Assembly: GCA_963789165.1 (NCBI GenBank)
Contig: CAWBJP010000003.1
Coordinates: forward strand, 518,625-582,624
Source of the DNA: an uncultured Actinomycetes bacterium
GTDB taxonomy: Bacteria > Actinomycetota > Acidimicrobiia > IMCC26256 > BP-133
Length of the DNA: 64,000 nt
Direction: 5' to 3'
A program made the translations under genes and the position numbers. Below are positions 4,832 through 30,754 of this stretch, one piece after another. How positions within the stretch are numbered: position 1 is the first letter of the stretch; each line of letters begins with the position of its first letter. The notes beneath the pieces are model-generated. The model saw only the letters and a program-made list of their open reading frames with translations, was not told the DNA's origin and ran no database searches.

Positions 4832-4870
4832 GGCGTGAGGCTATCGAGCCCGGTCGCGCCACCGGCGATG

Positions 4871-12329: not shown

Positions 12330-12589
12330 CTGGACCCCCTCGTGGCTGGCTCGGGACGAATCCCGCCCCCGGTGTTCCACCTGGAGGAGCGGCGCACTGC
12401 GCCGACCTCGCGGCCTCTAAATCCATACTACTTTTTCGAAGTTCTAGGAAGTATCGTGCTTGTGACGTACGGAACGCCGGCTTCGACACACTCGATACGG
12501 CTTGCCCGTCAATGAAGTACCGCCTTGCAGGGGCGAGGGTGACCCGGGAGCATTGCGACAGCGTGGATCGCTGACCCTTGGAGCGTGTC

Positions 12590-13627
12590 ATGGGCGGCAT
12601 CTTCATCAACTACAGGCGTAACGACTCCGAGTACATCGCGGGCCGGCTCCGAAACGACCTCTCCCGGCGGTTCGGCACCGATTTCCTGATTTTCCGCGAC
12701 GTCGACTCCTTGGCGCTCGGACGCTTCGCGGAGGAGATCGACCAGGCGGTCCGGTCCTGCGACGTGATGGTCGTGGTGATCGGTGACGGTTGGCTCGATG
12801 CCCGCGATGCCTCGGGCAAAAAGCGCCTGGACCAGCCCGACGACTGGGTCCGGCAGGAGATCGCCGCCGGCCTTAGACAGAAGAAGATTCTGGTCCCGGT
12901 ACTGGTCGAGAACGCCCGCCTGCCTTCGGCCCACGAGCTACCGCTGGAGATAGCGGAGCTGGTCGACCAGCAGGCCGTGGAGCTTCCCGACTCCCGGTGG
13001 GATTACGAGGTGGAACAACTGGTCGGAAAGCTGGAGCGGTCGCTCCGGTCGAGAAACCTCTTGCCCTCGGATCAACAGCAGGAATTGCCGGCTCCACCCC
13101 TGCGGGATTCCACCAGGAGGTCTGGGCCCAAATGGGCCTTGGCAATCATCCCCGTCGTTCTTGCCGCCGGTGTGTTCGCCATAGTCCGCTCGAGCGGCTC
13201 CGGCTCGGAGTGCACACGCGACCGAACTCCGGCGCCAGGGCGGACGACTGTTGCCTCCCGTCAGACGGACCGGTCATATACCGGCCCATGGTCGGTGACC
13301 TGCGGTCCCCTCACGCTCACCATCGAGAAGATCGAAACCTCCGCCAGCGCCACCCGGGTTCATGCCCGGGTGGACAACGAGACGGACGACACCCTGATCC
13401 TTTCCGCCAGTCAGTTCAACATGGTCGATGACAACGGACACAGCTATCGAGCGAATCCGTTCTCGAGCGAATGGCCCAAAGACATTCCCCCCGGTGTGCT
13501 CCGCGGGATCGTCGATGTCGTGGAGCCGCTCCGGCCGGAGGCGACAAGTATCAGCGCGGGGTGGGGCACCGTGTTCGGGACCTTCGCGGTCGACCAGATC
13601 TTCGTCGAGGGCATCGGGCTGCGGTAG
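12590..13627 (+). CDS. Membrane-anchored TIR-domain protein with a C-terminal DUF4352-like beta-sandwich
   Basis: N-terminus MGGIFINYRRNDSEYIAGRL...VMVVVIGDGWL...DDWVRQEIAAGL (TIR_2-type motifs including the conserved Glu). TM helix WALAIIPVVLAAGVFAIV. C-terminal LTIEKIETSASATRVHARVDNETDDTLILSASQFNMVDDNGHSY. Confidence 0.85.
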   Translation: MGGIFINYRRNDSEYIAGRLRNDLSRRFGTDFLIFRDVDSLALGRFAEEIDQAVRSCDVMVVVIGDGWLDARDASGKKRLDQPDDWVRQEIAAGLRQKKILVPVLVENARLPSAHELPLEIAELVDQQAVELPDSRWDYEVEQLVGKLERSLRSRNLLPSDQQQELPAPPLRDSTRRSGPKWALAIIPVVLAAGVFAIVRSSGSGSECTRDRTPAPGRTTVASRQTDRSYTGPWSVTCGPLTLTIEKIETSASATRVHARVDNETDDTLILSASQFNMVDDNGHSYRANPFSSEWPKDIPPGVLRGIVDVVEPLRPEATSISAGWGTVFGTFAVDQIFVEGIGLR

Positions 13628-13636
13628 GCGACCGGA

Positions 13637-14173
13637 GTGATCATCGTGCATGCGGGCAATCGAATCGATCCGCCGGGAAGAGTCCCGCCCCGCTTTCCCG
13701 CCCATCGGGAACGGGCGGTCGGGGCCAGGATGGTGGAGCTACTCCAGATTCTCGAGCCCGCAGGCATTGTCAGCGCGGCGGCCGCCGGTGCCGACCTCCT
13801 GTTGGCCGAAGCGGCTCTGGATCGGGCGGTACCCCTCCACGTCGTCCTCCCCTGCCCTCGAGCCCGCTTCCAGGAGGTGTCGGTCGCGGATCAAGGCCCG
13901 CGTTGGGTTCTCGCCTTCGAGCGGGTCCTGAACCATGTCGCCCAAGACACCCGGTCCTCGTTGGAGGAGTTGACGCTCGAGCCGGACGACGCCGGCTTCC
14001 GCATGGCCAACCAGGTGCTGCTGGATCGGGCGGTCAACCTCGGCGCCGACCGGGTACTGGCCGTGGCCGTCCGCCCGAGACAGAGGGAGTCCACGCCGAG
14101 CGTGACCGATGACTTCGTCGACCGCGCCGAGGCGGCCGGATTCTTCGTACTGGAGATCGATCCCGGGCACTGA
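13637..14173 (+). CDS. SLOG/LOG-like Rossmannoid domain protein (tentative)
   Basis: HAGNRIDPPGRVPPRFP...IVSAAAAGADLLLAEAALDRAVPLHVVLPCPRARFQEVSV resembles the N-terminal module of DUF4071/TRAFs-binding-type proteins. The gene starts 10 nt after the TIR stop and ends 40 nt before the CHAT gene. The start could be GTG 13637 or GTG 13646. Confidence 0.5.
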   Translation: MIIVHAGNRIDPPGRVPPRFPAHRERAVGARMVELLQILEPAGIVSAAAAGADLLLAEAALDRAVPLHVVLPCPRARFQEVSVADQGPRWVLAFERVLNHVAQDTRSSLEELTLEPDDAGFRMANQVLLDRAVNLGADRVLAVAVRPRQRESTPSVTDDFVDRAEAAGFFVLEIDPGH

Positions 14174-14213
14174 GCGCAAACGTCCAGCAGGTCAGCCGGA
14201 AGGGGGACCCAAG

Positions 14214-17200
14214 ATGGCGGAGTCCGAGAGCGGGCCCGGCGTCCAAGGCATCTCACTGGCAGGCGAAGGCGTCCGATTCGCCGCGGATCGTGGAGTCGCC
14301 GCCGACACCCGGTCGGACGGCGTCACCGTTGATCCCGTGGCCGCCACCATCAACGCCACCGATGGCTTGCGTATCGCTGAGGCCATCACCATTCGAAACC
14401 TCGAGGTGACCGGGGGCGGCGGTCGAGGTGACGCGCGTGAGGGTGCGCTGGTTGTGGATGTCGGGCGGGCAGAGCCGGGTGAACGACCCGTTGTTCTCGT
14501 CGAAGAGGACGGCCGCTACACCTGGGTCGTTCCCGCCCCAGGCCAGGAACGTCTCCGGTTGCCGGTGGAAGCCGCTCCTGGAAGCCGGGGGCTGGCCGGC
14601 TGGGCTGTTCGCCGCGTGCTTCGCGTGGTGGCCGTGAAGACCGTGGGCTGGGCGGTGCACGAGGCGACGCGGACGATCGTCGGCGGCTGGGACGAACGGC
14701 GCCACCCGCACCGCCTCCGCGCCTGGACGCCCGAGAACCACCGCGACCCCAATGCCCCACCTCCCGACATGCAAGCTCTGGGGGCCGGACCAGCTCTGCT
14801 TGTCATCCACGGGTTCATGGGGTCCGTCCACGGGTCCTTCGGCGACCTGGCGGCTGACGTAGTGCGCGGGTTCCACCGGGCGTATCGCGGCCGCACATTC
14901 GCCTTCGACCACCCGACCCTGGCGGTCTCCCCAAGGAAGAACGCCAAGTGGCTCGCCCAGCAGCTCAGCAGCGAGGGCGTTCCCCTGGTCCTCGATGTCG
15001 TCGCCCACTCGCGGGGCGGGCTCGTCGCCCGCGAGCTGGCTCAGCGACTGAGCGGAGATGGCGTCACGGTGCAGTCGATCACGTTCGTAGCCACCCCGAA
15101 TGACGGCACCCCTCTGGCCGACCCGAAGCGACCCGAGGGGCTTCTCGACGCTCTCACCAACCTGGCTGGCGCAGTGCCGGGCAGCGATGCCCTCCAACTC
15201 GTCTTGGAACTCTTGAAAGACATCGTGGTGGGGTCAGCCTTCACCGGCCTCAAGGGGCTGGTGGCCATGGAGCCGGGCGGGGCCTACCTCAGCGAGCTCA
15301 ATGCTCTACCCGTCCCGGAGGGCTTGGAGCTCCGGGCCATCGCGGCTGACTTCGAACCCCGCAGCGACGCCGGGATCGTCCGGACCGCACACGACCGTTT
15401 GATCGACGCCTACTTCGGTGGGCTTCGCAATGACCTCATCGTTCCCACGCTGAGCACGATCGTGACGAGCGGCGCCTTCGGTGTCCGTGCCGGCCACCGC
15501 CTCGTCCTCGACAGCAGCCGCGGGGTGGACCACAGCTCGTTCTGGACCAACCCCAGGGCCGTAGGCCAGCTCGCCGATTGGCTGCGCCCGGACTGGCGTG
15601 AGCGTCCCCCGGACGAGGTACCTGACGAGGAGACGGACCCCGGAGCCGAGATGGCGCTGCCCCCCGATCCCCGGAGGATCGAAGACGTGGCGGATGCCGT
15701 CAGCCGCCTCCCCGACAGGTCCCGCAAGGCGGTGGAGGAACTTGTCGGAGGCCCGATCAATGAACGGGCCCGCAGACCCACAGGCGACCGTCCAGCCGTG
15801 GTCGTCATCCCGGGAATCATGGGGACGCATCTGCGCCGCCGAGCCGGTGAGCTCATCTGGATCGATCCGTTGCGCCTGATGCGCGGCCACTTCAGTGACT
15901 TGTCCTTGGCACCGCCAGGGGCCGAGGTGGAGCCTGCGGGATTGAACCGCACGTATCTCCCCCTCATCACCCATCTCGCCGAAACGCGGGATGTCTACCT
16001 GGCTCCGTTCGACTGGCGCCTCGACATCCGGGACTCGGCGAACAAGCTGGCGAACCTGATCCAGGACCAGGTTCTCGTAGCCAACCCCACCCGGTCGGTG
16101 CATCTCGTAGCCCATTCGATGGGTGGCCTGGTGGGCCGGTCACTCACCTTCGTAGCTCCGGGCGTGTGGTCCGAAATGGGTGCTGAGCAGCGCGGAGACA
16201 GTGGTCGGCTGGTGATGCTGGGGACACCGAACCGAGGATCGTTTTCCATCGTGCTGACCCTCACGGGCGCAGAGATGATCTTGAAAGCCCTCGCCGCAGT
16301 CGACTTCCGTGCCGACACCAGACGGCTGCTCGAGGTCGTGGCCACCTTCCCGGGCGTGTATCAGATGCTTCCCTCCCTCAGCGTCGGGCCGGGCGACGAC
16401 CGGCACCGCGACCTGTTTACCGCCACCAACTGGGGCAGTCGGTCACCGGTTCAGCAGGCCCTTCTTTCCGATGCGGTCGAGTTCCACGCCGCCCTGGAAG
16501 AAGCGCACCGGAACCTGAGCGATACGGACCTCGCCCGCATGACGTCCGTCGCCGGGTACGGCGTCGCCACCCCTTATCGGCTGGAGATCACCGAACCCGG
16601 GTCGTTCAGCGTCGGTCGGGTGCTGAGGGGCGACGGCCGCGTGGCGATGGCTCTCAATCACCTCGACGGCGTGACCCGCTACTACTGCAAGGCATCCCAT
16701 GGTGCGCTGCCGTCGGCACCGGATGTCCTGGCCTCGCTCGGGGAACTGCTGGCCGGGAACCCTGGCCAGTTGGAGCGTGAGGCGCCCGAATCCCGAGGCG
16801 CCGAGGCCATGGACCGGCCGCCGATGATCCCCGTCGAACTCTTCGACTCGGTACCCACCGGCGGGACACGCTCCGGCGTCGCCGTCGTAGGCCGGCGCCA
16901 GGCGGAGGCGCGCCTGGTCGAGGCTCTCAGACCCTCGTTGGGCGGAGGCCTCGCCCCTCCCGAACGGGTGCAGGTCAAGGTCCGCGTGGTCCATGCCAGC
17001 CTCGAACAGGCCGATTTCCCGGTCGCTGTCGGTCATTACACGGGGGTCCCGGTCGACGGGTCGGAAGGGTTTCTCGACCGCAAGCTGTTGGGTGCCCTGC
17101 GCCAACGGCAGTACCTCGGGCAATATCCCGAACGGGCAGGGACGGCCGTGTACATCCCGGCCCCGCCTGGCCACCAGCCCCGGGGGGCGCTGATATTGGG

Positions 17201-19709
17201 CCTCGGGGAGTTCGGCACGTTGACGGGCGCCAACCTCTCCGAGGCAATGACCCAGGCTGTCATCGCCCTGGTCCTCGACCAGCGTGAGCGCGACCCGGAT
17301 CCGAGCGCTTCTGTGAGCATCGGCGTCTCATCGGTGCTCGTCGGGACACCCGGGCGTCACGGTCTGACCATCGAGAACGCCGTCACTTCACTGGTTGAGG
17401 GCGTGATCGAAGCCGTGGTCCGCCTTCGACGCCAGGACGAGCCCATTCCCCTGCGAACGGTCGAGCTCGAATTGATCGAGAGCTATCAGCAACCCGCGGA
17501 AGAGGCGGCGATGCTGCTGGCCGACCTGGACAGGCTGCTGGAGCCCGGCCTGCGGGACCAGGTCGACCTGCTGACCGTCGACCGCTTGGTCGCACGCGAG
17601 GGCCACCAGCCCGGCGCGCCGCCGGGACGTGAGTCGGGCGAGGCCTGGATCCGTGTGCTGGTAGGGCTCGAACGCGATGAGCAGGCGGCGGGGACTTCCT
17701 CGATCCGTCGTATGACCTTCTCGACGCTCGCCCGCGGGGCCCAGGCCAACCTGATTTCACACGACGTCGACCTGGAGAAGATTCGGGCCTACGTCGACGC
17801 CGCCGTCCGACGCCCAGAACAGGATCCGGCCATCAACCGGACGCTGTTCGAACTGCTCTTTCCGCCCCGGGCCAAGCTGGACCTCGACCGGTCGGAGCAC
17901 CTCCACCTCATCGTGGACGACGAGACGGCCCAGCTGCCGTGGGAGCTCCTGGCGGCGGCAGCCGTCGGTCGCGATGTTGCGCCTCTCGCCCTGCGGGCGG
18001 GCATGCTGCGGCAACTTCAGAGCCCGTCGCTCACGCGCTACCGAACAGGCTCTCCCCGGGGCCTGACGGCTCTGTTCGTCGGAGATCCGCCCACCAGCTA
18101 CCCCCGCCTGCCCAACGCCAGAGAAGAGGCTGAACGCTTGGCGACACTGTTTGAAGGGCGACGCTGGGAGGTGGAACGCCGCATCTACGGGGACGACCAC
18201 ACCGGCGACGCCGACGAGTGGATGGACGTCCTGAACGCCCTCCACCAGCGGGACTACCGCGTGGTGCACATCGCGGCCCACGGCGTGTTCGATGAGGACT
18301 GGCGGCGCAGCGGCGTCGCCATCGGGCCCCTCCCCGAGCACCGCCTGACCGCCCTCGAGTTCGAGGCCATGAGCTCCACCCCTGACCTCGTCTTCCTGAA
18401 TTGCTGCCATCTCGGCCGCCTGGGTTGGTTGCTCGATCAGGCCAAGGAGCCCGACGCCCGGGCCCTCGAGCGGCCACACCGGGTCGCCGGCACGGTCGCC
18501 CAGCAACTCCTCCGCAACGGGGTCGGGGCGGTGGTGGTAGCGGGTTGGGCCGTCGACGACTTCGCCGCCGCCGCCTTTGCCTCTGAGCTCTACGAATCGA
18601 TGCTCGGCGGCTATCCCTTCGGCGAGGCGGTGCGCAAGGCCCGCATCGCCGCTCACAAAGCCGACGATGGCCGTTCAAACACGTGGGGGGCGTACCAGTG
18701 TTACGGCGACCCGGACTTCGAGATGTTGGCCCGGGACGTCCCGCCCACGACGCGGCCCGCACCCGTGAGCGCGGCGCAGCTGGCCCGAGACCTGCGACTG
18801 GCCGCCATCCGGGCCAGTGAAGCGACAACGGTCGAGCACACCAGGCAGGTGGCGAGAGAGGTCAACGGGCTGCGGGTGGCCGGGGGGGACCTGGTCAACG
18901 ACGGCCGGGTGCTGGAAGAGCTGGGTGACGCCTTCAGCGAGCTCGGTCACTATGAGCAGGCCGTGGAGGCCTATGAGCAGGCCCTGCGCGAGGAGAAGGG
19001 CGAGGTCCGGATCAGGACGGCCGAACAGCTCGCGAACCTGAAGGCCCGCCTCGCGGTCAACCTGGCCCGAAAGCCGGACGGGTCCGCGGATGCCCGCCGG
19101 CTTTTTGCCGAGGCCAGCTCGATGCTCGACCTTCTCGACCGTCTCGCCGGGAACACGGCCGAACGCCACGCCTTGCGAGGCAGCCTGGAGAAGAAGCGGG
19201 CCACCACCGTGGAAGGCGAGCAACGCGCCAAAGCCCTCATCACGGCCCGCGCCGCGTACCTGACGGCCCGTCAGCTCAGCTCGCCTGACCGCCACGCGTG
19301 GCTGGTCCCGTACCACACCAACCTCTGGCTGCAGCTCGTCATCCTGACCAGCGAATCCGCTGCCCTCGCGGAAGAAGAATCAGGCTGGCTGGATGCGCTC
19401 CACCACCAGGTCGCCGAGCAAGCGAGCACTCCGTCCAACTATTGGGAGCTGGCGGCACTGGCCGACACGCTGCTGACCTATCTCCTGGCCGACCGGCCCA
19501 CCACTCGAGGTTCGGTGTCCGCCGAAGAGGTGAAGACGAGCTATCTGAAGGCCTTCGAGCTTCGTTCCACCGTGCGCCAACGCGATTCTGCCCTCACCCA
19601 CCTTCACGATCTCAGCCTGCTCGTGCCGTTCGAGAGAGCGCAGCCGTACGTCACCCTGTTGGAAAGCCTGAGAAGGGTCTTCCCCGATGAGGAAGGTGCC
19701 GGGCGATGA
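14214..19709 (+). CDS. 1831-aa multi-effector protein: two alpha/beta-hydrolase (lipase/PGAP1/LCAT-like) modules + CHAT caspase-like protease + C-terminal helical-repeat (TPR/DUF4071-like) region
   Basis: ATG 14214 follows ggaaggggga. Hydrolase 1: LLVIHGFMGS...LDVVAHSRGGLVAREL. Hydrolase 2: VVVIPGIMGTHL...VHLVAHSMGGLVGRSL. CHAT dyad: YRVVHIAAHGVF ... DLVFLNCCHLG. C-terminus contains LGDAFSELGHYEQAVEAYEQALRE and further helices. Confidence 0.9.
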   Translation: MAESESGPGVQGISLAGEGVRFAADRGVAADTRSDGVTVDPVAATINATDGLRIAEAITIRNLEVTGGGGRGDAREGALVVDVGRAEPGERPVVLVEEDGRYTWVVPAPGQERLRLPVEAAPGSRGLAGWAVRRVLRVVAVKTVGWAVHEATRTIVGGWDERRHPHRLRAWTPENHRDPNAPPPDMQALGAGPALLVIHGFMGSVHGSFGDLAADVVRGFHRAYRGRTFAFDHPTLAVSPRKNAKWLAQQLSSEGVPLVLDVVAHSRGGLVARELAQRLSGDGVTVQSITFVATPNDGTPLADPKRPEGLLDALTNLAGAVPGSDALQLVLELLKDIVVGSAFTGLKGLVAMEPGGAYLSELNALPVPEGLELRAIAADFEPRSDAGIVRTAHDRLIDAYFGGLRNDLIVPTLSTIVTSGAFGVRAGHRLVLDSSRGVDHSSFWTNPRAVGQLADWLRPDWRERPPDEVPDEETDPGAEMALPPDPRRIEDVADAVSRLPDRSRKAVEELVGGPINERARRPTGDRPAVVVIPGIMGTHLRRRAGELIWIDPLRLMRGHFSDLSLAPPGAEVEPAGLNRTYLPLITHLAETRDVYLAPFDWRLDIRDSANKLANLIQDQVLVANPTRSVHLVAHSMGGLVGRSLTFVAPGVWSEMGAEQRGDSGRLVMLGTPNRGSFSIVLTLTGAEMILKALAAVDFRADTRRLLEVVATFPGVYQMLPSLSVGPGDDRHRDLFTATNWGSRSPVQQALLSDAVEFHAALEEAHRNLSDTDLARMTSVAGYGVATPYRLEITEPGSFSVGRVLRGDGRVAMALNHLDGVTRYYCKASHGALPSAPDVLASLGELLAGNPGQLEREAPESRGAEAMDRPPMIPVELFDSVPTGGTRSGVAVVGRRQAEARLVEALRPSLGGGLAPPERVQVKVRVVHASLEQADFPVAVGHYTGVPVDGSEGFLDRKLLGALRQRQYLGQYPERAGTAVYIPAPPGHQPRGALILGLGEFGTLTGANLSEAMTQAVIALVLDQRERDPDPSASVSIGVSSVLVGTPGRHGLTIENAVTSLVEGVIEAVVRLRRQDEPIPLRTVELELIESYQQPAEEAAMLLADLDRLLEPGLRDQVDLLTVDRLVAREGHQPGAPPGRESGEAWIRVLVGLERDEQAAGTSSIRRMTFSTLARGAQANLISHDVDLEKIRAYVDAAVRRPEQDPAINRTLFELLFPPRAKLDLDRSEHLHLIVDDETAQLPWELLAAAAVGRDVAPLALRAGMLRQLQSPSLTRYRTGSPRGLTALFVGDPPTSYPRLPNAREEAERLATLFEGRRWEVERRIYGDDHTGDADEWMDVLNALHQRDYRVVHIAAHGVFDEDWRRSGVAIGPLPEHRLTALEFEAMSSTPDLVFLNCCHLGRLGWLLDQAKEPDARALERPHRVAGTVAQQLLRNGVGAVVVAGWAVDDFAAAAFASELYESMLGGYPFGEAVRKARIAAHKADDGRSNTWGAYQCYGDPDFEMLARDVPPTTRPAPVSAAQLARDLRLAAIRASEATTVEHTRQVAREVNGLRVAGGDLVNDGRVLEELGDAFSELGHYEQAVEAYEQALREEKGEVRIRTAEQLANLKARLAVNLARKPDGSADARRLFAEASSMLDLLDRLAGNTAERHALRGSLEKKRATTVEGEQRAKALITARAAYLTARQLSSPDRHAWLVPYHTNLWLQLVILTSESAALAEEESGWLDALHHQVAEQASTPSNYWELAALADTLLTYLLADRPTTRGSVSAEEVKTSYLKAFELRSTVRQRDSALTHLHDLSLLVPFERAQPYVTLLESLRRVFPDEEGAGR

Positions 19710-20764
19710 CCATGCAGCTCTTCCTGAGCCACTCGACTCGTGACCGAACCATCGCCGAGGCGGTCAAGGTACTGGTTGAGGACCTGTTCGGGACGGACCG
19801 GGTTCAGGTGGAATTCTCTTCCGATCAGCAAGCTGGCGGCGGCATCCCGCCCGGCGCGCAGTGGCTCCCATGGATCACTGAGCGCATCACGCGAGCCGAC
19901 AAGACCTACGTGCTCATCACGCCGAACTCGACGAAGAAGCCCTGGGTCCTGTGGGAGTCGGGGGCGGCCGCCGGTGTCGCTCTGGCAACCCACAGATCGA
20001 GCCCCGTCGTCCCCATCACGTTCGGCATCGCAGACGCCGACATCCCGAGCCCTCTCCTGGCCAATCAGCGGGTGCGGGGTGACACCGATGAGGCCGACGG
20101 CATCACCCGGTTGCTCCAGGACCTCAACCTTGCCGTTGGTGCCCCACTGACCACCAAGGCCTTCGCTTCAACCATCGACGAGTGCCTCCCCGATTTCTTT
20201 GCCAAGATCAAGATGGCCCTCGGTCAATCCTCACCCGCAGAAAGCCTGCTCGCCTCGGTACCCCACAGCTTCTCCGCCGAAGCGCTGGGCGGCTTCTGGG
20301 TCACCTGCTACCAGTTCGCTTCGAGCCAGGGCCTGGGGTGCCATGCCGACATCGCGCAGCTCACCCCGGAATCGGATCGACGGGTGAGAGCCAGGAACTG
20401 CCCGCCTGAGCCCCGAACCGACGGTCACCGCACGCCGTTCCGGAACGAGATCGAGGCCGAGTTGGCCAACCGGCACCTCATCGGTTATTGGAAGAACGTC
20501 AGCGACACCCGGTACTTCGGGACAGTTCACCTCGCCGTCCTCCCTGGCGAGACCGTGATGGACGGCTACTACACCAGCTTCACAAGCGACGTCGAGGCCG
20601 GCACCGGGCACTGGAGGTGGGTCCTCCTCGACCCCGAGTCGCTTCCGGGTGTCGATCTCACCCGCATGGCGTTGCGGGAGCCAGCCGTGATCCACGAACT
20701 GCTTCTGGCGCACTCCAAGCACGCCGGGCCGATCAAGTTGGCCGATGTGGCGGAGGCCATCTAG
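19706..20764 (+). CDS. TIR-like domain protein with an uncharacterised ~180-aa C-terminal domain
   Basis: The ATG overlaps the CHAT stop (ATGA at 19706-19709). MQLFLSHSTRDRTIAEAVKVLVEDL...YVLITPNSTKKPWVLWESGAAAG (TIR-like beta-A motif and W..E glutamate). I do not recognise the C-terminal half. Confidence 0.7.
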   Translation: MTMQLFLSHSTRDRTIAEAVKVLVEDLFGTDRVQVEFSSDQQAGGGIPPGAQWLPWITERITRADKTYVLITPNSTKKPWVLWESGAAAGVALATHRSSPVVPITFGIADADIPSPLLANQRVRGDTDEADGITRLLQDLNLAVGAPLTTKAFASTIDECLPDFFAKIKMALGQSSPAESLLASVPHSFSAEALGGFWVTCYQFASSQGLGCHADIAQLTPESDRRVRARNCPPEPRTDGHRTPFRNEIEAELANRHLIGYWKNVSDTRYFGTVHLAVLPGETVMDGYYTSFTSDVEAGTGHWRWVLLDPESLPGVDLTRMALREPAVIHELLLAHSKHAGPIKLADVAEAI

Positions 20765-21154
20765 GTGGGAATCACCAGGCAGGAGGCCGGCGACGTCGTC
20801 AACCTCTACATCCAGGCGTGGGTCGGGCAGGATCCCGATCTGATCGTGACCATCTTCACCCCTTCGGCCACCTATCACGAGCGCGTGCTCGACACTCCGA
20901 TCCGAGAACGCGAAGGGATCCGGGCGTACTGGCAGGCGAAGGTCGTCGAGTCGCAACGCAACATCGAATGCGACCTGCTGAACCTGTATCTCGACGGGGC
21001 TACCGCCATTGTCGAATGGGAGGCCCGTTTCGACGACCTGGTTGCGAAGGAGCGGAAACGGATGCGAGAGGTGGCGATCCTCGTCTTCGAGGGCCAACTG
21101 ATCGCCAGCCTCCGCGAATACTGGTCCTCGGAGCGGATCGCCGACCTGTCCTAA
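20765..21154 (+). CDS. NTF2-like / SnoaL-like fold protein
   Basis: GTG start immediately after the TAG of the preceding gene. VVNLYIQAWVGQDPDLIVTIFTPSATYHE...IRAYWQ...YLDGATAIVEWEARF...VAILVFEGQLIASLREYW is typical of the SnoaL/NTF2 pattern. Confidence 0.7.
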   Translation: MGITRQEAGDVVNLYIQAWVGQDPDLIVTIFTPSATYHERVLDTPIREREGIRAYWQAKVVESQRNIECDLLNLYLDGATAIVEWEARFDDLVAKERKRMREVAILVFEGQLIASLREYWSSERIADLS

Positions 21155-21306
21155 CTCGTATACGCGAGCGGAACGACTTTCAAGTTTCCGTAGACATTAT
21201 GGCATTCTTCGCTAAAGTTAGGCGTAGTTGACGCTCTACCTCGAGCGGGCGCCGAGGGACGAAGGTGCGACGTGCATCCCCTCGTTCGAAAGCGAAGGGA
21301 GCAGCG

Positions 21307-22170
21307 ATGTCGCGCGGATGGTCAATCCATATCGGCCTCAACTCCGTCGATCCTGACAGTTACGAGGGTTGGGCGGGCCCGCTCTCGGCCTGCGAGTTCG
21401 ACGCTGGCGACATGGCCGTCCTTGCTGAAAGCCAGGGCTTTGAAACCAGGACGATCCTCACTCGCGAAGCCACCGCAATCAACGTCATCGGAGCACTCCA
21501 ACAGGCCGCGGCCGTACTTCAGGATGGCGACATTCTCTTCCTCTCCTACTCCGGGCATGGTGGCCAGGTCGACGACGCGAACGGCGACGAGAAGGACCTG
21601 CGGGATGAGACCTGGGTCCTCTATGACCGACAGCTTCTCGATGACGAGCTCTACGACCTGTGGAGCAGATTCCGTCCTGGTGTTCGGATCGTCGTCGTCT
21701 CCGACTCCTGCCACAGCGGGACGGTAGTGAGGGGGATTCCCGATTACCTCCAGGCCTCGGTCCTTCAGGCCCGCTACGGGGGGATGACGGTGGAGGATGT
21801 TGACCGAGGCACCAAGGCCATGCCCGAGAAGATCAGCAGGAGCGTCAACAACGCCCACCGCGACCTATACGACGGCATCCAGAGAGCCCTCAAGACGAGG
21901 GATGGGGCCGCAATAGGGGCCGGCGTGCTCCTCATCTCCGGATGCATGGACAACCAACTCTCAGCGGATGGGGAGCGCAACGGAAGGTTCACCGAAGAGC
22001 TTCTCCGGGTGTGGAACACCGGCAAGTTCGAAGGGTCGTACCGCTCCTTGCACAAGACAATCCTCATGGGCATGCCGCCAGACCAGTCCCCGAACCTTCT
22101 TCCCGTCGGTACTGCCAACCCGGAGTTCGAACAGCAACGACCCTTCAGTATCGAGCTCTTCCCACGGTGA
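21307..22170 (+). CDS. Caspase-family (peptidase C14, metacaspase-like) cysteine protease
   Basis: ATG 21307 follows gaaggga. His context ILFLSYSGHGGQV and Cys context IVVVSDSCHSGT. Confidence 0.9.
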   Translation: MSRGWSIHIGLNSVDPDSYEGWAGPLSACEFDAGDMAVLAESQGFETRTILTREATAINVIGALQQAAAVLQDGDILFLSYSGHGGQVDDANGDEKDLRDETWVLYDRQLLDDELYDLWSRFRPGVRIVVVSDSCHSGTVVRGIPDYLQASVLQARYGGMTVEDVDRGTKAMPEKISRSVNNAHRDLYDGIQRALKTRDGAAIGAGVLLISGCMDNQLSADGERNGRFTEELLRVWNTGKFEGSYRSLHKTILMGMPPDQSPNLLPVGTANPEFEQQRPFSIELFPR

Positions 22171-22709
22171 GCACCCCGACCATTCCAGAGGACGTCGAGC
22201 CGACCGAACGGATCGAGGTGTTCTTGTCCTACGCGCATGAGGACCAGGAGTTTCGCGGCCAGCTTGCCGCGCACCTCAGTCAATTAGAACAGAACGGCGA
22301 TATCAAAGCCTGGTCAGACCGTGAAATTGCGCCCGGTGCCAATTGGGATCGAGAAATTGACGTTCACGTGCTGACGGCGCACGTGATTCTTCCTCTGCTC
22401 AGCCGACACTTTATGGCGTCGCGTTATTGTTTCTCGGAAGAACTACGTATCGCAAAGAAGCGACACGAAGCCGAAGAAACTCGTCTAATTCCCATATTGA
22501 TTCGTCCAGTTGCCCTCGTCGGAGTGCTGATGCAGCTTCAGATGCTGCCCTCCTGTCCTGACGGAAGCGAACTACTCCCCGTGAGTGCATGGCCCGACGT
22601 CGACAACGCATGGACGCAGGTCACCGACCGAATAATCGAGGCGGTGGCCAGCGTGCGCAAGCAGCGGCAACAGAAATCTCCAAAGGTCTGGGGCAGCGGT
22701 TCGGGATAG
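22167..22709 (+). CDS. TIR-domain protein
   Basis: GTG 22167 overlaps the caspase stop (GTGA). IEVFLSYAHEDQEFRGQLAAHL...WSDREIAPGANWDREI...ILPLLSRHFMASRYCFSEELRIA (TIR_2 motifs including the conserved Glu). Confidence 0.85.
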   Translation: MSTPTIPEDVEPTERIEVFLSYAHEDQEFRGQLAAHLSQLEQNGDIKAWSDREIAPGANWDREIDVHVLTAHVILPLLSRHFMASRYCFSEELRIAKKRHEAEETRLIPILIRPVALVGVLMQLQMLPSCPDGSELLPVSAWPDVDNAWTQVTDRIIEAVASVRKQRQQKSPKVWGSGSG

Positions 22710-22716
22710 AGAGAGG

Positions 22717-23334
22717 TTGTTCGGCCGACAGGACCTTTTGGACGATCTTTGGTATCGCTACAAAGACCTGACTCAATCCAATATCCAAGTACTGGTCGGC
22801 TCTTCAGGGCTCGGTAAAAGCACCGTCGCTGCGCAGTACGCCTGGACACATCGTCCTGACTACGAAGTCGTGTGGTGGATCAACGCAAGCGACCCGACTC
22901 AACTCGAAGCCTCCTACGTTGCCCTCGCGGAAGCCCTGGGATCCGCGACACTGAGGGGCGATGCCGCCAAGGAGGTAGTGAAGGAACGACTCAAGGAAAC
23001 CGGAGCGCTTCTGATCTTCGACAACGCGCGGGACCCACGACACATTGAGTCGTTCCTCCCACACCAGCCTCGTAGCCATGTGCTCGTCACATCGCAGGGC
23101 GGTAATTGGCCGGAGCTTGGATACGTCACATCTTTTCAGGCCCTTACTCAGGCCGAGGTCGAGCACGTCCTGCGTGAGGCTGCAGATATGGACGACCAGG
23201 ATCTAGTCCCCGAGCTCGCCCGCCACCTTCAAGGCGACCCGTTGGCGGTAAAGACCGCTGTCGCCCGGCTGCGGTCCGGGGAGAGCGCATGGTCCTACCT
23301 TCGCAAGCTTCAGCAATGGGCAAAAGGGCAGTGA
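22717..23334 (+). CDS. NB-ARC-type STAND P-loop NTPase module (no sensor or winged-helix part in this frame)
   Basis: TTG 22717 follows gagagagg, 7 nt after the TIR stop. FGRQDLLDDL...VLVGSSGLGKSTVAAQYA (Walker A), ALLIFDNARD (Walker B), HVLVTSQ, GDPLAVKTAVARL. Confidence 0.85.
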   Translation: MFGRQDLLDDLWYRYKDLTQSNIQVLVGSSGLGKSTVAAQYAWTHRPDYEVVWWINASDPTQLEASYVALAEALGSATLRGDAAKEVVKERLKETGALLIFDNARDPRHIESFLPHQPRSHVLVTSQGGNWPELGYVTSFQALTQAEVEHVLREAADMDDQDLVPELARHLQGDPLAVKTAVARLRSGESAWSYLRKLQQWAKGQ

Positions 23335-26300
23335 CTTCTAGCGCCGGCGGCGTGACCGGTGGTTCGGTAACAACGGCAGCCGAGCTCGCTCTCGACGAGA
23401 TGAGCACCGATTCTGCCGAAGTCATGGAGTTGCTAAGCCTTCTCGCCTTCTTCGCCCCGGACAGCGACATCCCCGGGCTCGTCCTCCTTGACGGTGCCAC
23501 CGCGCTCGAAGCAGATGCATGCAAACCAATTTCCTCTCCGCTCGCTCTCAACGACGCGATGTCCACTCTCGTCGCATGGGGGCTGGCAGAAGTTGACGGT
23601 GTCAGCCTGGTCATCCATGAGCGGATCCAGATCGCCGTGCGGGCGCGCCTCGGCTCCGATCAACAGCGCCGAACCGCGGAAGCCGCGGGTCTCGTCATAG
23701 CGTCGACCTATCCAGACCATCCCGATGCCATTCGGAACTGGCCCAAGGCCGGGTTGCTGCTCTCGCATGCTCTCGGGCTCATCGATCACCTTGAACGGCT
23801 TCGAAGTAAATCGGAAGTCCTTCCCCGGTTGCTCGACCGAGTCGGCCTCCATTTTATGGGCCTCGGACGACTGCAGGATGCCCTCCGGCTTCTCGAGCAG
23901 GCACAAGCAACTGTGTTCCTGGTCCACGGCGCTGGAAGCGACCTCGATGCTTGCGTCCAGCGCCACCTGGGCACGGTCCTTCGGGAGGCGGGCCGGCTCA
24001 GAGAATCAGAGTTGTTACTCCAAAGAGCGCTGGCGAAGGACACAGATCGAGACGGGGCTGATTCTCCGTCCGTAGCATTGGACCTCCGAGAGCTGGGCCA
24101 GACACTGGCCCGCCACAAGGGCTATCTCGAAGCACGAAAGCATCTGGCCAAAGCGCTTCAGATCCACGAGACTTTCGAGCCCGACGGGTTCGAGGTCGCC
24201 GCCGATCTTGATGCGCTATTTGAGGTGTTCGCCCTCCGAGGCGACATCGCCGAAGCGCGCAGCGTTCTCGAACGGGCTTTGTCCATCCGCGAGAAGCTCT
24301 TCGGTCATGACGACGTCGACACAATCATGACTCGCGTTGCCTTGGAGGTATTTCGTGGACTCTTGGTCGAGGGTTGGTCGAACACCTCTGCCATCGAACG
24401 GTACGTAGCGCAATCGGAACAGACGTTCGGCCTATCTCACCCTCGAGTCGCGGAGGTCTACGAACTGGTGTCGGATGCGGCTGCGAACCGGCAGGATTGG
24501 GAAGCTGCGCAGACGTATCTCGAACGGTCTCTAGAGGTCAACAAGTCCGCATACGGTCGTACGCATCCGCGCATCATCAGCAACCTATTCCGGCTCTTCA
24601 GAACAGCCTTGGCTCTGGGGCAAATTCAACGGGCCGGGGCGTTAACTGAGGAAGCGATCGGCATCCTGAAAGAGGTGCGGCCAGAGGATCTTGAAGCGAC
24701 GATCGCCCAAGCTGACGTCGCCACCGCTCTTTCGCCGTTGTCAGAGCTGGACCCTTCGGCCCGTCCGGCAGCCCGTACCGGCCTGGAACGATCGCTTGAG
24801 ATGCTTCGGCATGAACTGCCCGCCGCGCGCACGACAGAGATCGATCTCCTAGAGGTGCTGGCCCAGCTGGCGGTCGACCAGGGTGAACGCAATCTGGAAA
24901 AGGATCTCTTGAGCGAGGCTCTGGAAATCGTCCGCTCGACAGATATGTCAGAGCTGGAGGAGGCTCGCCTGCTGAGCAAGATGGCCGCGGGCGAGGAATC
25001 GCCTGCCAAGGCACTCCTCTTATGGACACGGGTTCTCGAGGTGGAGCGTCGCGAGCTCGGCCCCGATCACTATCGCCTCTTTACCACGTACTCATCCTTG
25101 TGGCCTCTGCTCCTAACGCTGAACCGGGTGCACGAGGCCCGAAGCGCCCTCGAGGAGGGCATCCGGATCGCTGGAAAAACATTCGGGCCCGACCATTGGC
25201 TGCTCGAGCAGATGCACGAGGCGCAGTCAGTCCTCAGCGCCTACGGCGGCGACATGGCCTCTGCGGTGGACGCGAGGCGCAAGGCCTTGGCTGCGGCAGA
25301 GAGCAATCCCAATTCTGATCAGGCGACCCTGGTGGTGCGGTTGATGCAGCTGGCCGAGACGCTCCAAGTCATCGGTGGATGGGAAGAGGCGCTAGAGCTC
25401 CTCCATCGGGGCCTGGAGATCCAAAAGGATGCGAAGCTCGACGAAGGACTTCGAGGGACCCTGCATCTCCGGCTAGCCGATTCGCTCATCCACGAAGGCG
25501 ACTACTCAGCAGCCCTGGCCAGCCTCAAAGAAGCTGCTCGGGTCGTAGAGATTGGGGAGGCCCGCCAAGACGCGGTGGAAGAAGCTGGCGCCTTGAGTCC
25601 CGGTCGCGAACAGATCGTCGAGGGATGGTCCAATCTCGGGGACGCCCTGCTCGCCAGTGGCCAGCCCTCGCTGGCGATCGAGCGTTACCAACTCGGGTTG
25701 CAAGCGGCGGCCCTGACTGAGACGCCTCTCGATGATGCGCAACTTCATGTCCGGCTTGCAGTCTTGGCCGGTATTCATCAGCAGGACGACTCGGCGAAGA
25801 ATCATCTGGAAAGAGCGCTTAAATTCATTCAAGCGGCTCAAATGCCCGGACCTCTGTGGGGCCTTTTGATCTCTTGCTCACGGGTCATGGCTCTCACGGA
25901 GCCACCCCAGGCAATTTTGCGACTCATACGAGAACTGGTCAGGTCTAGCTCGGGAGCGATGATGGACTTTCGTGGCAAACTCACGGGGGGCGTGCCTGAT
26001 GGATGGTTTGCGAAGGAGTCCCTCACTTTCGTTGCACCAGACGGCCAGGCGAACGTGATCGCTTCGAGTGAGCCACTCGACGAAACGATCAGGTCTGAGG
26101 AGTATGCGCAAATTCAAGGCGATCTTCTGCAAAGCGAATTTCCGGAGTATGCCGAACTCTCTTTTGAACCCGCTCACGTCTTTGGCCGAGCCGGATTCGT
26201 CCGCTATTTCCGTTGGACTCCTCCAGATGGCGTCTCAGTAACCCAGATCCAGTTCTACCACGCCGATACTGGACGAGGCTTTACTGCCACAGCGACTACA

Positions 26301-26396
26301 CCGACGATTAACTTTGATTCGGTTGGCGGTCTACTTCGCCTCGTGCTGGATGCACTCGTCATCGGCGATGACGCCGCCGCCGTGAACGTCTCGTGA
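23289..26396 (+). CDS. Continuation of the STAND NTPase: winged-helix segment + long TPR array + C-terminal DUF1795/DcrB-like domain
   Basis: This frame overlaps the NB-ARC ORF by 46 nt. MELLSLLAFFAPDSDIPGLVLL is a typical NB-ARC WH segment. Many TPR_10/12-like repeats follow (LGTVLREAGRLRESELLLQRALA ...). The tail reads GVPDGWFAKESLTFVAPDGQANVIASSEPLDETIRSEEYAQIQGDLLQSEFPEYAEL. The true N-terminus probably lies in the previous ORF. Confidence 0.85.
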   Translation: MVLPSQASAMGKRAVTSSAGGVTGGSVTTAAELALDEMSTDSAEVMELLSLLAFFAPDSDIPGLVLLDGATALEADACKPISSPLALNDAMSTLVAWGLAEVDGVSLVIHERIQIAVRARLGSDQQRRTAEAAGLVIASTYPDHPDAIRNWPKAGLLLSHALGLIDHLERLRSKSEVLPRLLDRVGLHFMGLGRLQDALRLLEQAQATVFLVHGAGSDLDACVQRHLGTVLREAGRLRESELLLQRALAKDTDRDGADSPSVALDLRELGQTLARHKGYLEARKHLAKALQIHETFEPDGFEVAADLDALFEVFALRGDIAEARSVLERALSIREKLFGHDDVDTIMTRVALEVFRGLLVEGWSNTSAIERYVAQSEQTFGLSHPRVAEVYELVSDAAANRQDWEAAQTYLERSLEVNKSAYGRTHPRIISNLFRLFRTALALGQIQRAGALTEEAIGILKEVRPEDLEATIAQADVATALSPLSELDPSARPAARTGLERSLEMLRHELPAARTTEIDLLEVLAQLAVDQGERNLEKDLLSEALEIVRSTDMSELEEARLLSKMAAGEESPAKALLLWTRVLEVERRELGPDHYRLFTTYSSLWPLLLTLNRVHEARSALEEGIRIAGKTFGPDHWLLEQMHEAQSVLSAYGGDMASAVDARRKALAAAESNPNSDQATLVVRLMQLAETLQVIGGWEEALELLHRGLEIQKDAKLDEGLRGTLHLRLADSLIHEGDYSAALASLKEAARVVEIGEARQDAVEEAGALSPGREQIVEGWSNLGDALLASGQPSLAIERYQLGLQAAALTETPLDDAQLHVRLAVLAGIHQQDDSAKNHLERALKFIQAAQMPGPLWGLLISCSRVMALTEPPQAILRLIRELVRSSSGAMMDFRGKLTGGVPDGWFAKESLTFVAPDGQANVIASSEPLDETIRSEEYAQIQGDLLQSEFPEYAELSFEPAHVFGRAGFVRYFRWTPPDGVSVTQIQFYHADTGRGFTATATTPTINFDSVGGLLRLVLDALVIGDDAAAVNVS

Positions 26397-27811: not shown

Positions 27812-30754
27812 GTGGCCGCTTTGACGCCATCCAGCCCCCAGTGCCCGCCCCCTACCGCCGCCGGCCCCCCGCTGGTGGGACGGGCCCGGGAACTGGCCTG
27901 GCTCAAGGACGAACTCGAACGGGCCCGGGCCGGCCGGTTCGGCATCGTCCTGCTCGTCGCCGAGGCGGGTGTGGGGAAGACCCGGCTGACGGGCGAGCTC
28001 CTCGGCCGGCATGCGCAGGAGTGCATCTGCTTGTCGGCCCGCGCCCATGCCCTGGGGGACACCACCTCCTTCGGCCTGTGGGCGGAGGCCTTCGAAGGCC
28101 ACCTCCGGAGCTGCGATCCGGCGGAGGTGGTCGAGCTGTGCGGCGGTCTGCTGGACGACGTCGCCGGCCTCTTGCGCAGTGCGGCTGTGGCCCGAGGAGG
28201 AATCCCCGACCCGGAGCCGTCGCGGGCCCAGCTGATCGACGGTTTGGCCGTCCTCCTCAACAGCCTGGGCCGCTCCGCCCCCGTGGTCATCTTCCTCGAC
28301 GACGTCCACGTGGCCGACGCCTCGTCCTGGAATGCCCTCGCCTACCTGGCCCGCAACCTGGGGGACTTACCCGTGCTCGTCATCGCCGCCGCCCGCACGG
28401 GCGAACTGGCCGCCCAGGCCGGTCCCACCCAGATGGTCCTCGGCATGGAGCAGGACGGACTGCTGCGCCGCCTCGCGCTCGGCCCGCTGGGGGAAGAGGC
28501 GATCGCTGAACTGGCTGGATCGATGGTCGGCGGTTCGCCGCCGCCCGCACTGGTGGGCTGGCTGATGGAGCGATCCCGGGGGAATCCGCTCTTCGCCCGG
28601 GGGCTGCTCCACGCGCTCCTTGACGAAGGCGCCGACCTGTCGGCCCCCCGGCTCCGGCGTCTCCCCGAAGGCCTCGCCGAGCGGGTCGTGGCCCGCCTCG
28701 ACGGCCTGCCCGACGCGGCCCGGAACACGGTGGAGCTCCTCGCCGTCGTGGGCCGCCGGATCGAGCTCGGCGACCTCGTCGATCTCAGCGGCCAGCCGTT
28801 CCAGCAGGTGGGGCCCATCCTGGACGGTCTGGTCCGGTCCCAGTTCCTCACCGCCGTGGAGCGGGGCCGGGGGGTGACCTACGAGATCCTCCATCCCCTG
28901 GCCCAGGAGGCCACCTACCAGGGCGTGGGGGCGGCCCGGCGCCATGAGCTCCACCGGCGCGTGGCCCGTGCCCTGCTAGCCGCCGGGCATCTGGGCGAGG
29001 CTGCGCCCCACTACGCGCGGTCAGCAGAGGTCGGCGACGCGGAGGCCATCGACGCGCTGTGCGGGGCGATGCGCCAGGCCGAGGACCGTCAGGCCTACCG
29101 AGAAGCGCTCACCATCCTCGGGCACCTCGTCGACCTGGTGCCGAGGGGAGATGAGCGCTGGCTCAGCGTGCTGGACGGCATGGTCCTCCAGGCGGAGTGG
29201 GTGGTCGACCACCGGGCCGACATCCACGCCGCCCTCGCAGTCCCGGCGCTGCGGACTCTTGACGCCATGCTCGAAGGGACGGCCAATGCCGAGCGGCGAG
29301 CGGCGGTCAAGTTCCGCCTGGCGAGCTTCACGATCTGGGGGACGGGTGAGCTTGACGCTGGCCTTGAGGCGGCTCGGGGGGCCAGGGCGCTCTTCGAGGA
29401 AGCGGGGAACCGCCAAGGGCCGCTGCTGGCGAGCCTGGAAGAGGCGTTCGCCCTGGCTTTCGCGGGCAAATCCGGGGGGTGGGTACCGGAATCACGTCAC
29501 TTGGCGGAGTTGGCCGAGGAACTGGGCGACCGCCTCGCCATGATGCACATCGTGGGGCGCGGGATCGGGTGGGGCGGCTTCTGGACCGGACGGTTCGACG
29601 AGGCGAAGCTCGCCCTCCTGCGGGCCATCGATCTCGCCCGGGAGGACAGCAAGACCTACTTCCATTCGCTCTGCCTGGGCGGGCTGGCCTTCACCCTCGC
29701 CTTCGAAGGCCGCATCGCGGAGACGGACAGCGTCCTCGCCGAGGCCAAGACGGTGAACCCGCAGTGGCGGGAGAGCCTGCTGCCCGAATGCGAGATCTGG
29801 GTTCGCTGGCTGGCGGGAGACTTTCAAGGGGCCTTGGATTGCGCCTGGGACTCGGTGGCGTGGAACACCAGCGGGGTGAGCCGGCGTCGGGGGGCCCCGT
29901 TCCCGTTCGCCGCCCTGGCCGCGCTCGAGACCGGCCGCCTGTCCGAGGCGGAGCGACTGCTGGCTGTGAGTCGGACCACCTTTGGCGAGCACCCCTTGCC
30001 CCTCACGCTCCAGCTCTGCGGCCATGCCCAAGCCGTGCTCGATTGGAACCAAACCCGCGATCGGAGAGCGCTCGCCCGCACCGAGGAGGCGGCCACCGAA
30101 ATCCAGCGGGTGGAGTGGTACCCATGGGCCGCCTTCCTCTTCCTCGACCTGGCTGAGATCGCCGCCGACGCCGGCGACCTCGCCACCGGGCAACGGGCCG
30201 CTGCCGGGCTCGAGGACGTTTCCGGGGAGCTTGATCGCGACCTGTACCGCGCGCTCGCCGCTATGGCCCGTTCCTGGGGGGCACTCGCCGGTCGAAAGCC
30301 GAAGGCGGCCGCCGAGGAGGCCGAGCGGGCCCTCGACCTCCTGCCCGCCGGCTACCAGGCTTTCGCCGGGCGGGCGCTCGACCTTTTCGGACGGGCCGTC
30401 GCCTCGGCCGACCGCCCTCGGGCGCGAAGCTCCCTCGAACAGGCCGCCACCGTGTTCGAGGGCTGCGGCGCCGCCAGGCGCCGGGAACGGACCCTCAAGG
30501 CGCTGGCCCGTCTCGGCAGCAGCGGCCAGAAGGCCGCGGCCGCCCTCGGCTCCGGCGCCCTCACCGCCCGGGAGACGGAGGTCGCACGGCTCGCCGCCCG
30601 GGGTCATACCGCCCCCGACATCGCCCGGCGGCTCGCCATCGGGGACCGGACGGTGGAGAGCCACATGGCTCGCATCTACGCCAAGCTGGGGGTCTCCTCC
30701 AAAGGTGAGCTCATCGACCGGGCCGCCGACCTCGGCTTGATCGACAAACCCTGA
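27812..30754 (+). CDS. LuxR-family regulator with an N-terminal AAA/STAND ATPase and helical repeats (MalT/LAL-like)
   Basis: GTG 27812 follows ggagg. Walker A LLVAEAGVGKTRL. C-terminal HTH LTARETEVARLAARGHTAPDIARRLAIGDRTVESHMARIYAKLGV. Confidence 0.9.
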   Translation: MAALTPSSPQCPPPTAAGPPLVGRARELAWLKDELERARAGRFGIVLLVAEAGVGKTRLTGELLGRHAQECICLSARAHALGDTTSFGLWAEAFEGHLRSCDPAEVVELCGGLLDDVAGLLRSAAVARGGIPDPEPSRAQLIDGLAVLLNSLGRSAPVVIFLDDVHVADASSWNALAYLARNLGDLPVLVIAAARTGELAAQAGPTQMVLGMEQDGLLRRLALGPLGEEAIAELAGSMVGGSPPPALVGWLMERSRGNPLFARGLLHALLDEGADLSAPRLRRLPEGLAERVVARLDGLPDAARNTVELLAVVGRRIELGDLVDLSGQPFQQVGPILDGLVRSQFLTAVERGRGVTYEILHPLAQEATYQGVGAARRHELHRRVARALLAAGHLGEAAPHYARSAEVGDAEAIDALCGAMRQAEDRQAYREALTILGHLVDLVPRGDERWLSVLDGMVLQAEWVVDHRADIHAALAVPALRTLDAMLEGTANAERRAAVKFRLASFTIWGTGELDAGLEAARGARALFEEAGNRQGPLLASLEEAFALAFAGKSGGWVPESRHLAELAEELGDRLAMMHIVGRGIGWGGFWTGRFDEAKLALLRAIDLAREDSKTYFHSLCLGGLAFTLAFEGRIAETDSVLAEAKTVNPQWRESLLPECEIWVRWLAGDFQGALDCAWDSVAWNTSGVSRRRGAPFPFAALAALETGRLSEAERLLAVSRTTFGEHPLPLTLQLCGHAQAVLDWNQTRDRRALARTEEAATEIQRVEWYPWAAFLFLDLAEIAADAGDLATGQRAAAGLEDVSGELDRDLYRALAAMARSWGALAGRKPKAAAEEAERALDLLPAGYQAFAGRALDLFGRAVASADRPRARSSLEQAATVFEGCGAARRRERTLKALARLGSSGQKAAAALGSGALTARETEVARLAARGHTAPDIARRLAIGDRTVESHMARIYAKLGVSSKGELIDRAADLGLIDKP

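Follow-up and report, generated by a model that had tools for sequence, protein, structure and literature searches.

A locus on the plus strand of the 64,000-nucleotide stretch of contig CAWBJP010000003.1 analysed here (the window) carries three open reading frames (ORFs) which encode, in this order, a TIR domain (frame 3), an NB-ARC domain (frame 1) and a winged helix followed by TPR repeats (WH-TPR; again frame 3). As this is the domain order of single-chain STAND proteins, the question is whether the locus should be read as three separate genes, as one gene broken twice, be it by errors, by mutations or by programmed frameshifting, or as two genes, one of which contains a single break. We consider the last reading to be the best, with a probability of roughly 0.6: the locus would be a two-gene TIR-effector STAND of the NB-ARC/AP-ATPase type, of which the first gene contains a single assembly error. 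Gene A (22167-23334) would comprise the TIR domain, the nucleotide-binding domain (NBD) and the ARC1 helical domain (HD), 388 aa in all, and gene B (from GTG 23331, or ATG 23289 or 23316, to 26396) the winged helix, the TPR array and a DcrB-like C-terminal domain; gene B would be translated separately, probably coupled to gene A via a GTGA overlap. The third ORF would be only apparent, because gene A has one extra base near the G4 run 22690-22693, most likely an error in the consensus of this metagenome-assembled genome (MAG), whose long contigs are rich in indels, and less likely a true inactivating mutation.

The domain assignments are as follows. The TIR ORF matches Pfam TIR_2 (67.3 bits, 2.3e-18) and the PADLOC ThsB profile PDLC00420 (1e-35), and judging by these profiles we class the TIR as ThsB-like. 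The NB-ARC ORF, which is open from 22636, has its earliest start at TTG 22717 and ends at TGA 23332-23334, scores slightly above the Pfam NB-ARC gathering cut-off (24.2 vs 23.5 bits) and retains the Walker A (GSSGLGKST) and Walker B (LLIFDNA) motifs, while its GDPLAV aligns with the G.P.AL of relatives, the ARC1 GxP motif. The WH-TPR ORF, if counted from ATG 23289, contains five TPR_12 matches (4e-38) and a weak DUF7779 match (0.0097). Thus, NBD, helical domain and winged helix are not on one polypeptide, the winged-helix/DUF7779 part being encoded by the following ORF and in another frame. For gene B, GTG 23331-23333 overlaps the TGA of the NB-ARC ORF (GTGA); ATG 23289, with GGAG 5 nt upstream, and ATG 23316 are alternative starts. 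The last ~190 aa of its product form a non-TPR alpha/beta domain, which possibly serves as an additional sensor or binds a partner. In public records this region is represented by the gene call P0157 (772 aa; window 24078-26396), which starts far downstream and leaves out the winged-helix part.

The three pieces were compared with their relatives in a full HMMER search of 1.8 billion representative proteins with the NB-ARC piece, the matches being aligned back to the DNA. Database proteins are only 30-40% identical to this piece. Among the 150 best homologues, 100 run collinearly from frame 1 into frame 3 with no loss, and for those bearing a TIR domain the collinearity extends over the step from frame 3 to frame 1 as well; in P0021, residues 4-137, 149-347 and 348-774 map onto the three pieces in order. 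Similarly, the NCBIfam profile NF040586 (FxsT) matches the NB-ARC ORF with its positions 7-211 and the WH-TPR ORF with its positions 226-559. It follows from this collinearity that, relative to the single-chain proteins, there are two frame changes here, +1 near 22700 (junction 1, between TIR and NB-ARC) and -1 near 23320 (junction 2, between NB-ARC and WH-TPR). The preliminary description of this DNA had recognized three ORFs in single-chain STAND order, which is borne out by both the homologues and the NF040586 coverage. It had also placed the TIR stop in frame 3 at 22709, the NB-ARC end in frame 1 at TGA 23332-23334 and the winged-helix segment in a frame-3 ORF opening at 23289, and all these coordinates are confirmed, as are the 46-nt overlap of the NB-ARC and WH-TPR ORFs and the A4 run 23322-23325 within it.

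When a profile of the window's clade was compared with solved structures, the best match was Roq1 (PDB 7jlv; E 8e-9, TIR through GLPLAL), and AfsR / large SARP (PDB 8k60, 8jke) was matched at E 1e-8. Via this profile, YCFSEEL of the TIR ORF lines up by motif with WCLEEL of Roq1, in which CLEEL is catalytic, and its glutamate is a candidate catalytic residue. Close relatives were not found: the locus is absent from all 40 other (related) genomes searched by DNA, and a protein search for near homologues returned only the contig's own gene call P0157 and matches of at most 32% identity. A search for longer homologues gave giant TPR proteins; with the winged-helix region there was one weak match, a fused one, and with gene B the ESM Atlas yielded generic TPR clusters only.

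The two-gene reading rests mainly on what is seen at junction 2. Here the preliminary description had proposed to align homologues, and the alignment shows that NB-ARC homology in frame 1 stops at YLRKL, whereas frame-3 homology starts near 23358. Seven diverged TIR-NB-ARC proteins (P0045, P0052, P0104, P0029, P0038, P0074 and P0277), which are singletons or fall into one small cluster and stem from JGI/IMG, Logan or NCBI/ENA contigs 2-12 kb long, have complete N-terminal TIR domains and lengths of 387, 389, 389, 391, 401, 403 and 406 aa. All seven end 8-14 aa past the (D)YL..L helix closing ARC1; the window ORF ends 11 aa past it. Their C-terminal tails are unrelated and have no common motif. 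Random truncations among other matches (P0064, P0075) end at other positions. In the maximum-likelihood tree of NB-ARC domains, the window, the seven short proteins and the fused protein P0022 form a clade (UFBoot 99, SH-aLRT 96), and in a separate tree of TIR domains the window groups with three of these seven (SH-aLRT 97). A further cluster of TIR_2+NB-ARC proteins, 410 aa long and with 57 members, is present in the ESM Atlas. The GTGA formed by GTG 23331 and the NB-ARC stop is of the same type as the ATGA/GTGA couplings at 19706 and 22167. The probability that a deletion falls by chance into the zone of about 24 nt from YLRKL to the stop is below 1%, even at the error rate of this assembly (see below), which argues for a real terminus common with the short homologues. 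We conclude that the stop at 23332 is probably a natural boundary; an indel error here is unlikely, and the small remainder goes to a true recent mutation. The terminus of gene A appears to be inherited with the short TIR-NB-ARC clade or convergent on it. The earlier view that NB-ARC and TPR have to be joined by a -1 shift is thus probably not correct, as the nearest homologue clade ends at the same position.

At junction 1 the situation is different in kind. Frame 3 ends with ..SPKVWGSGSG*, and frame 1 carries on with AAVRDRERLFGRQDLL; the frame-3 SPKVW and the frame-1 AAVRDRERLFGRQ align collinearly with LPKVWNVPFRRNPHFTGR of the relatives, so that the two frames, when joined, restore the conserved ..LPKVWNVP.R...F.GR.. 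linker with no residue lost. As assembled, TIR and NB-ARC do not share a continuous frame of about 390 aa, being separated by the +1 break at 22690-22716, whereas all short members of the window's clade have both domains in one ORF; the single fused member, P0022, has a different N-terminal domain. If the G4 run (22690-22693) is read through with an X, gene A becomes 388 aa long, matching the short-clade length. In frame 1 there is no start upstream of TTG 22717, and the GAGAGG run abuts this TTG, leaving no usable Shine-Dalgarno (SD) spacing. The preliminary description had let the NB-ARC ORF start at this TTG after gagagagg; its coordinates hold, but the TTG is not a clean gene start, as the frame break lies inside the conserved linker. 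The likeliest site of the extra base is the G4 run. We consider it very probable that junction 1 is a one-base insertion by assembly error, because in this genome single-nucleotide indels occur about once per 3.5 kb even in essential genes.

This rate was measured on nine long housekeeping genes, about 29 kb in total, picked regardless of their state from the assembly, a 4.31-Mb MAG of 14 contigs with 91% completeness and 7.4% contamination. Four of the nine (rpoC, ileS, secA and gyrA) are intact. By contrast, rpoB (C12:382626-385956) has an additional G that breaks the frame within the universal ..SPDR/VDYMDVSPKQ, each of the two dnaE copies (C2:274700-277832 and C3:84046-86726) has one break, alaS (C7:149110-151694) at least three, and uvrA (C11:76959-79744) two. 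The overall count for the nine is 8 breaks per ~29 kb, hence the figure of ~1 indel per 3.5 kb; insertions are represented as well as deletions, all of 1 nt and mainly in short G/C runs. Outside this set, gltX (C1:291638-293033) also has one break. As the organism could not live with these essential genes broken, the breaks are consensus errors. A paralogue-based count of frameshifts (37 split pairs vs 859 testable ORFs) underestimated the error rate measured on the housekeeping genes. The preliminary description had suggested a sequencing or assembly error at the NB-ARC/TPR junction; this holds for the assembly in general, given the frameshifted essential genes, but it is junction 1, and not the junction in question, that it fits best. 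The MAG consensus is unreliable, and claims of frameshifts, pseudogenes or recoding from this genome need confirmation at the level of reads.

Two further observations concern the assembly as such. Contig C5 (82 kb) is syntenic with a part of contig C12 (249000-338000), of which it is a copy with 78-90% nucleotide identity. The bin therefore includes DNA from a second, related population, and this accounts for part of the 7.4% contamination. In gyrA (C9:93687-97352), a single frame of 1341 aa, a 1.26-kb non-gyrA stretch is situated between profile positions 116 and 115; this insert is probably an intein.

Several observations speak against two genes meeting at junction 2. The nearest neighbour of the window in the NB-ARC tree is not a short protein but the fused, 1574-aa P0022 (with a warning of long branches), and the approximately unbiased (AU) test does not reject a clade of the short proteins only, without the window (p 0.27). 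Among 132 informative, more distant loci, 120 continue in frame past the boundary and none are split there (of the other 12, 11 run off the contig and one, L179, has a stop inside the NB-ARC match). The linker, when joined across junction 2, has a canonical length (52 aa vs 51 in P0164), A4 and G3 runs sit in the junction, and ~1.2 indel errors would be expected in the 4.2-kb locus at the measured rate. There is no strong SD sequence upstream of GTG 23331. Finally, a WH-TPR partner gene beside the short homologues is putative: no short TIR-NB-ARC ORF was present in searches of the class and of the phylum, each with 401 genomes, or of Cyanobacteriota, likewise with 401 and centred on G789, and scans of genome and metagenome contigs retrieved only fused relatives of 25-42% identity and no short homologue. 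Scans of viral contigs gave no matches, and the plasmid matches were all fused or split at the TIR/NB-ARC junction.

Natural splits of the latter kind do exist. In Polyangiaceae, TIR and NB-ARC are separated by a -1 frame offset that is kept in 12 of the 13 loci examined, hence being a conserved natural split or recoding site; in ten Sorangium genomes, Chondromyces apiculatus and one Polyangiaceae MAG, the split paralogue immediately precedes a TIR-NB-ARC-TPR gene of the fused kind, and it consists of a TIR ending with ..EQLTQNP[PS]* and an NB-ARC without TPR (L020-L031, L053, L024, L028; ~4200-5830). On Acaryochloris plasmids (matches H17-H20) a TIR coding sequence adjoins an NB-ARC-TPR one, both being annotated in three of four records, and in pREB7 of Acaryochloris marina (L189, 4347-7609) there is an in-frame TAG between TIR and NB-ARC-TPR.

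Both the Polyangiaceae offset and the neighbouring coding sequences of Acaryochloris plasmids would be precedents for reading the window as three genuine genes, TIR, NBD-HD and WH-TPR, each translated separately. However, the natural-split NB-ARC ORF of Polyangiaceae retains the VW.VP motif, while the break in the window falls inside it; the sole start available is a TTG abutting the SD-like run, and in the window's own clade TIR and NB-ARC are fused, so that we regard three genes as very improbable. Even less credit is given to programmed -1 ribosomal frameshifting at the A4 run, which would set the ratio of TIR-NB-ARC to the full-length sensor. A tRNA-Lys on AAA could indeed re-pair in the -1 frame at C_AAA_AGG, but the site, G_GCA_AAA_GGG, is not an X_XXY_YYZ heptamer, and the 105 nt from ATG 23316 through the site have a minimum free energy of -34.5 kcal/mol vs the mean of -36.8 for shuffled sequences (z +0.66). 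The protein tails of the seven short relatives have neither a Lys-rich nor any other conserved site, and a full-length product of the sequence as assembled would additionally need a +1 shift at 22690-22716, 620 nt upstream. The suggestion of the preliminary description that slippage regulates the dose of the full-length sensor is therefore unsupported, there being no heptamer, no stable structure and a need for a second, opposite shift.

Assembly errors at both junctions are the more serious competitor, the real gene then being a single-chain TIR-NB-ARC-WH-TPR of ~1409 aa, similar to P0022 and P0021. The essential genes are broken about once per 3.5 kb, and in some of them two or three breaks fall within 2.6-2.8 kb. 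Each of the three pieces is collinear with single-chain proteins, and to this the canonical linker length, the runs at junction 2 and the position of P0022, already mentioned, can be added. On the other hand, a second error would have to strike by chance the very stretch of ~7 codons in which seven related proteins end, and the trees of both NB-ARC and TIR place the window among the short proteins, so that we consider the single chain unlikely, though not negligible. A genuine decaying pseudogene, with one or both breaks being true mutations in a recently acquired and unselected defence gene, is distinctly improbable. This is a foreign gene in a low-GC island within a defence cluster, such genes turn over fast, and other accessory genes of the genome are multiply broken. 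Real mutations are indistinguishable from errors here, but the errors are at least tenfold commoner, as even rpoB and alaS are hit; moreover, over ~1400 codons at only ~60% GC there are no in-frame stops, and the putative catalytic motif and the nucleotide-binding motifs are intact.

If the locus is indeed a two-gene STAND, TIR-NBD-HD would constitute the "effector + switch", and WH-TPR, the "lid + sensor". By analogy with known systems, the TPR/C-terminal arm of gene B might bind a ligand derived from an invader, and the winged helix of B would dock onto the nucleotide-bound NBD-HD of A; A would then oligomerise, and the clustered TIR domains would cleave NAD+ or produce a signal. The TIR output possibly feeds the caspase-like protease encoded by the translationally coupled upstream gene, which is a candidate downstream effector. 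More generally, an NLR-like STAND clade could exist as two polypeptides cut between ARC1 and the winged helix, with split and fused forms toggled by frame, and for this broader proposal we would give even odds. As the two ORFs are one frame apart, with an overlap of 4 nt, the gain or loss of one base in the linker could toggle lineages between the split and fused states, cf. the fused P0022 and the short clade. If so, the ADP-locking contact of NBD and winged-helix domain (WHD) that keeps STANDs off would form in trans, and the system would naturally separate sensing from switching. Provided that the cut between ARC1 and the winged helix is real, NLR-type autoinhibition and activation would take place between two proteins and would thus be open to experiments in which both are co-expressed and titrated, an approach not available for single-chain NLRs. 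A full-text search of the literature found no description of a bacterial STAND split between ARC1 and WHD, the only related instance being a passing mention of "split proteins" for Avs7.

The STAND pieces form the end of a plus-strand conflict cluster (TIR, CHAT, TIR, SnoaL, caspase), whose features are listed in Table 1. The caspase ORF ends with a TGA that shares bases with the GTG at which the TIR ORF starts (GTGA), and most genes of the 12578-22170 island are joined by a stop/start overlap, with ATGA/GTGA at 19706 and 22167. The three STAND pieces have a GC content of 57-61% and GC at third codon positions (GC3) of 0.62-0.67, vs 71% GC of the genome; since this low composition is shared by all three, they were acquired together by horizontal transfer. 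The upstream conflict island has a GC content of 62-68%. Just 3' of the island, at 27812-30754, there is a 980-aa AAA_16 + LuxR (GerE) regulator gene with genome-normal GC (72.5%).

Table 1. Features of the STAND locus and of the conflict cluster upstream of it (window positions).
Feature	Position	Strand	Remarks
TIR gene	12578-13627	+	same plus-strand cluster, upstream of the STAND pieces
1866-aa DUF7379/alpha-beta-hydrolase/CHAT/TPR-S protein	14109-19709	+	same cluster
Second TIR gene	19706-20764	+	same cluster
SnoaL-like gene	20765-21154	+	same cluster
Caspase-like gene	21265-22170	+	Pfam Peptidase_C14, 1.2e-21
TIR ORF, N-terminal part of putative gene A	22167-22709	+	frame 3; GTG 22167, TAG 22707-22709
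Junction 1	22689-22716	+	+1 frame break, one extra base, in the ..P.VW..(V)..R...FGR linker motif
NB-ARC ORF (NBD + ARC1/HD), C-terminal part of putative gene A	22717-23334	+	frame 1; Pfam NB-ARC/AAA_16
Junction 2 zone	23311-23334	+	last non-conserved codons of gene A, A4 run 23322-23325, GTG 23331-23333/TGA 23332-23334
Putative gene B	23331-26396	+	frame 3; winged helix (DUF7779-like) after a short Ser/Gly tail, then TPR array and DcrB-like domain at the C-terminus
C-terminal alpha/beta domain of gene B	25800-26393	+	Pfam DcrB, E 0.00096, below cut-off

Among the known systems, the single-chain TIR-NB-ARC-TPR STANDs (FxsT-like, Avs/AVAST-type), for which the NTP-dependent conflict systems (Kaur et al. 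2020, PMC7159879) serve as comparators, share with the window the order of TIR, P-loop NBD, ARC1, winged helix and TPR. The window differs from them in the interruption of the chain, which comes after ARC1 and before the winged helix, and gene B has an additional DcrB-like C-terminal domain. Identity with FxsT itself (NF040586) was rejected, as the two ORFs score 136.8 and 123.9 bits vs the cut-off of 300; Fxs partner genes, which would be those of the FxsA peptide and the radical SAM protein FxsB, are not seen either, there being no radical SAM gene among the neighbours scanned. The short TIR-NB-ARC proteins (387-406 aa) belong to the same clade and have the same end point and, after read-through of junction 1, the same length as gene A; unlike them, the window has a WH-TPR gene directly 3', and its copy is frame-broken after VW.

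With the plant TIR-NLR Roq1 the window presumably shares the principle that STAND oligomerisation activates the TIR NADase, whereas its sensor is TPR and not LRR, the host is bacterial, and the proposed layout has two chains. The truncated TN / TNP proteins of plants belong to the same comparison. AfsR and the large SARP regulators have a homologous NB-ARC-TPR core; however, AfsR is a transcription factor with a DNA-binding SARP effector, and the effector in the window is the ThsB-like TIR.

Identity with Thoeris was rejected, as none of nine island proteins matches the PADLOC ThsA, the effector of SIR2 or Macro/SLOG type expected beside ThsB. A pairing of TIR and caspase is reported for type IV Thoeris (Rousset et al. 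2025, as cited in PMC13581612), and in the window, too, a gene for a ThsB-like TIR is joined by translational coupling to one for a caspase-like protease. In contrast to the pairing as outlined by the citing article, the TIR of the window would be fused to a STAND NTPase, and a functional tie of the two proteins is hypothetical. By this analogy, the locus resembles the TIR-caspase pairing of type IV Thoeris, with a putative STAND switch attached to the TIR side.

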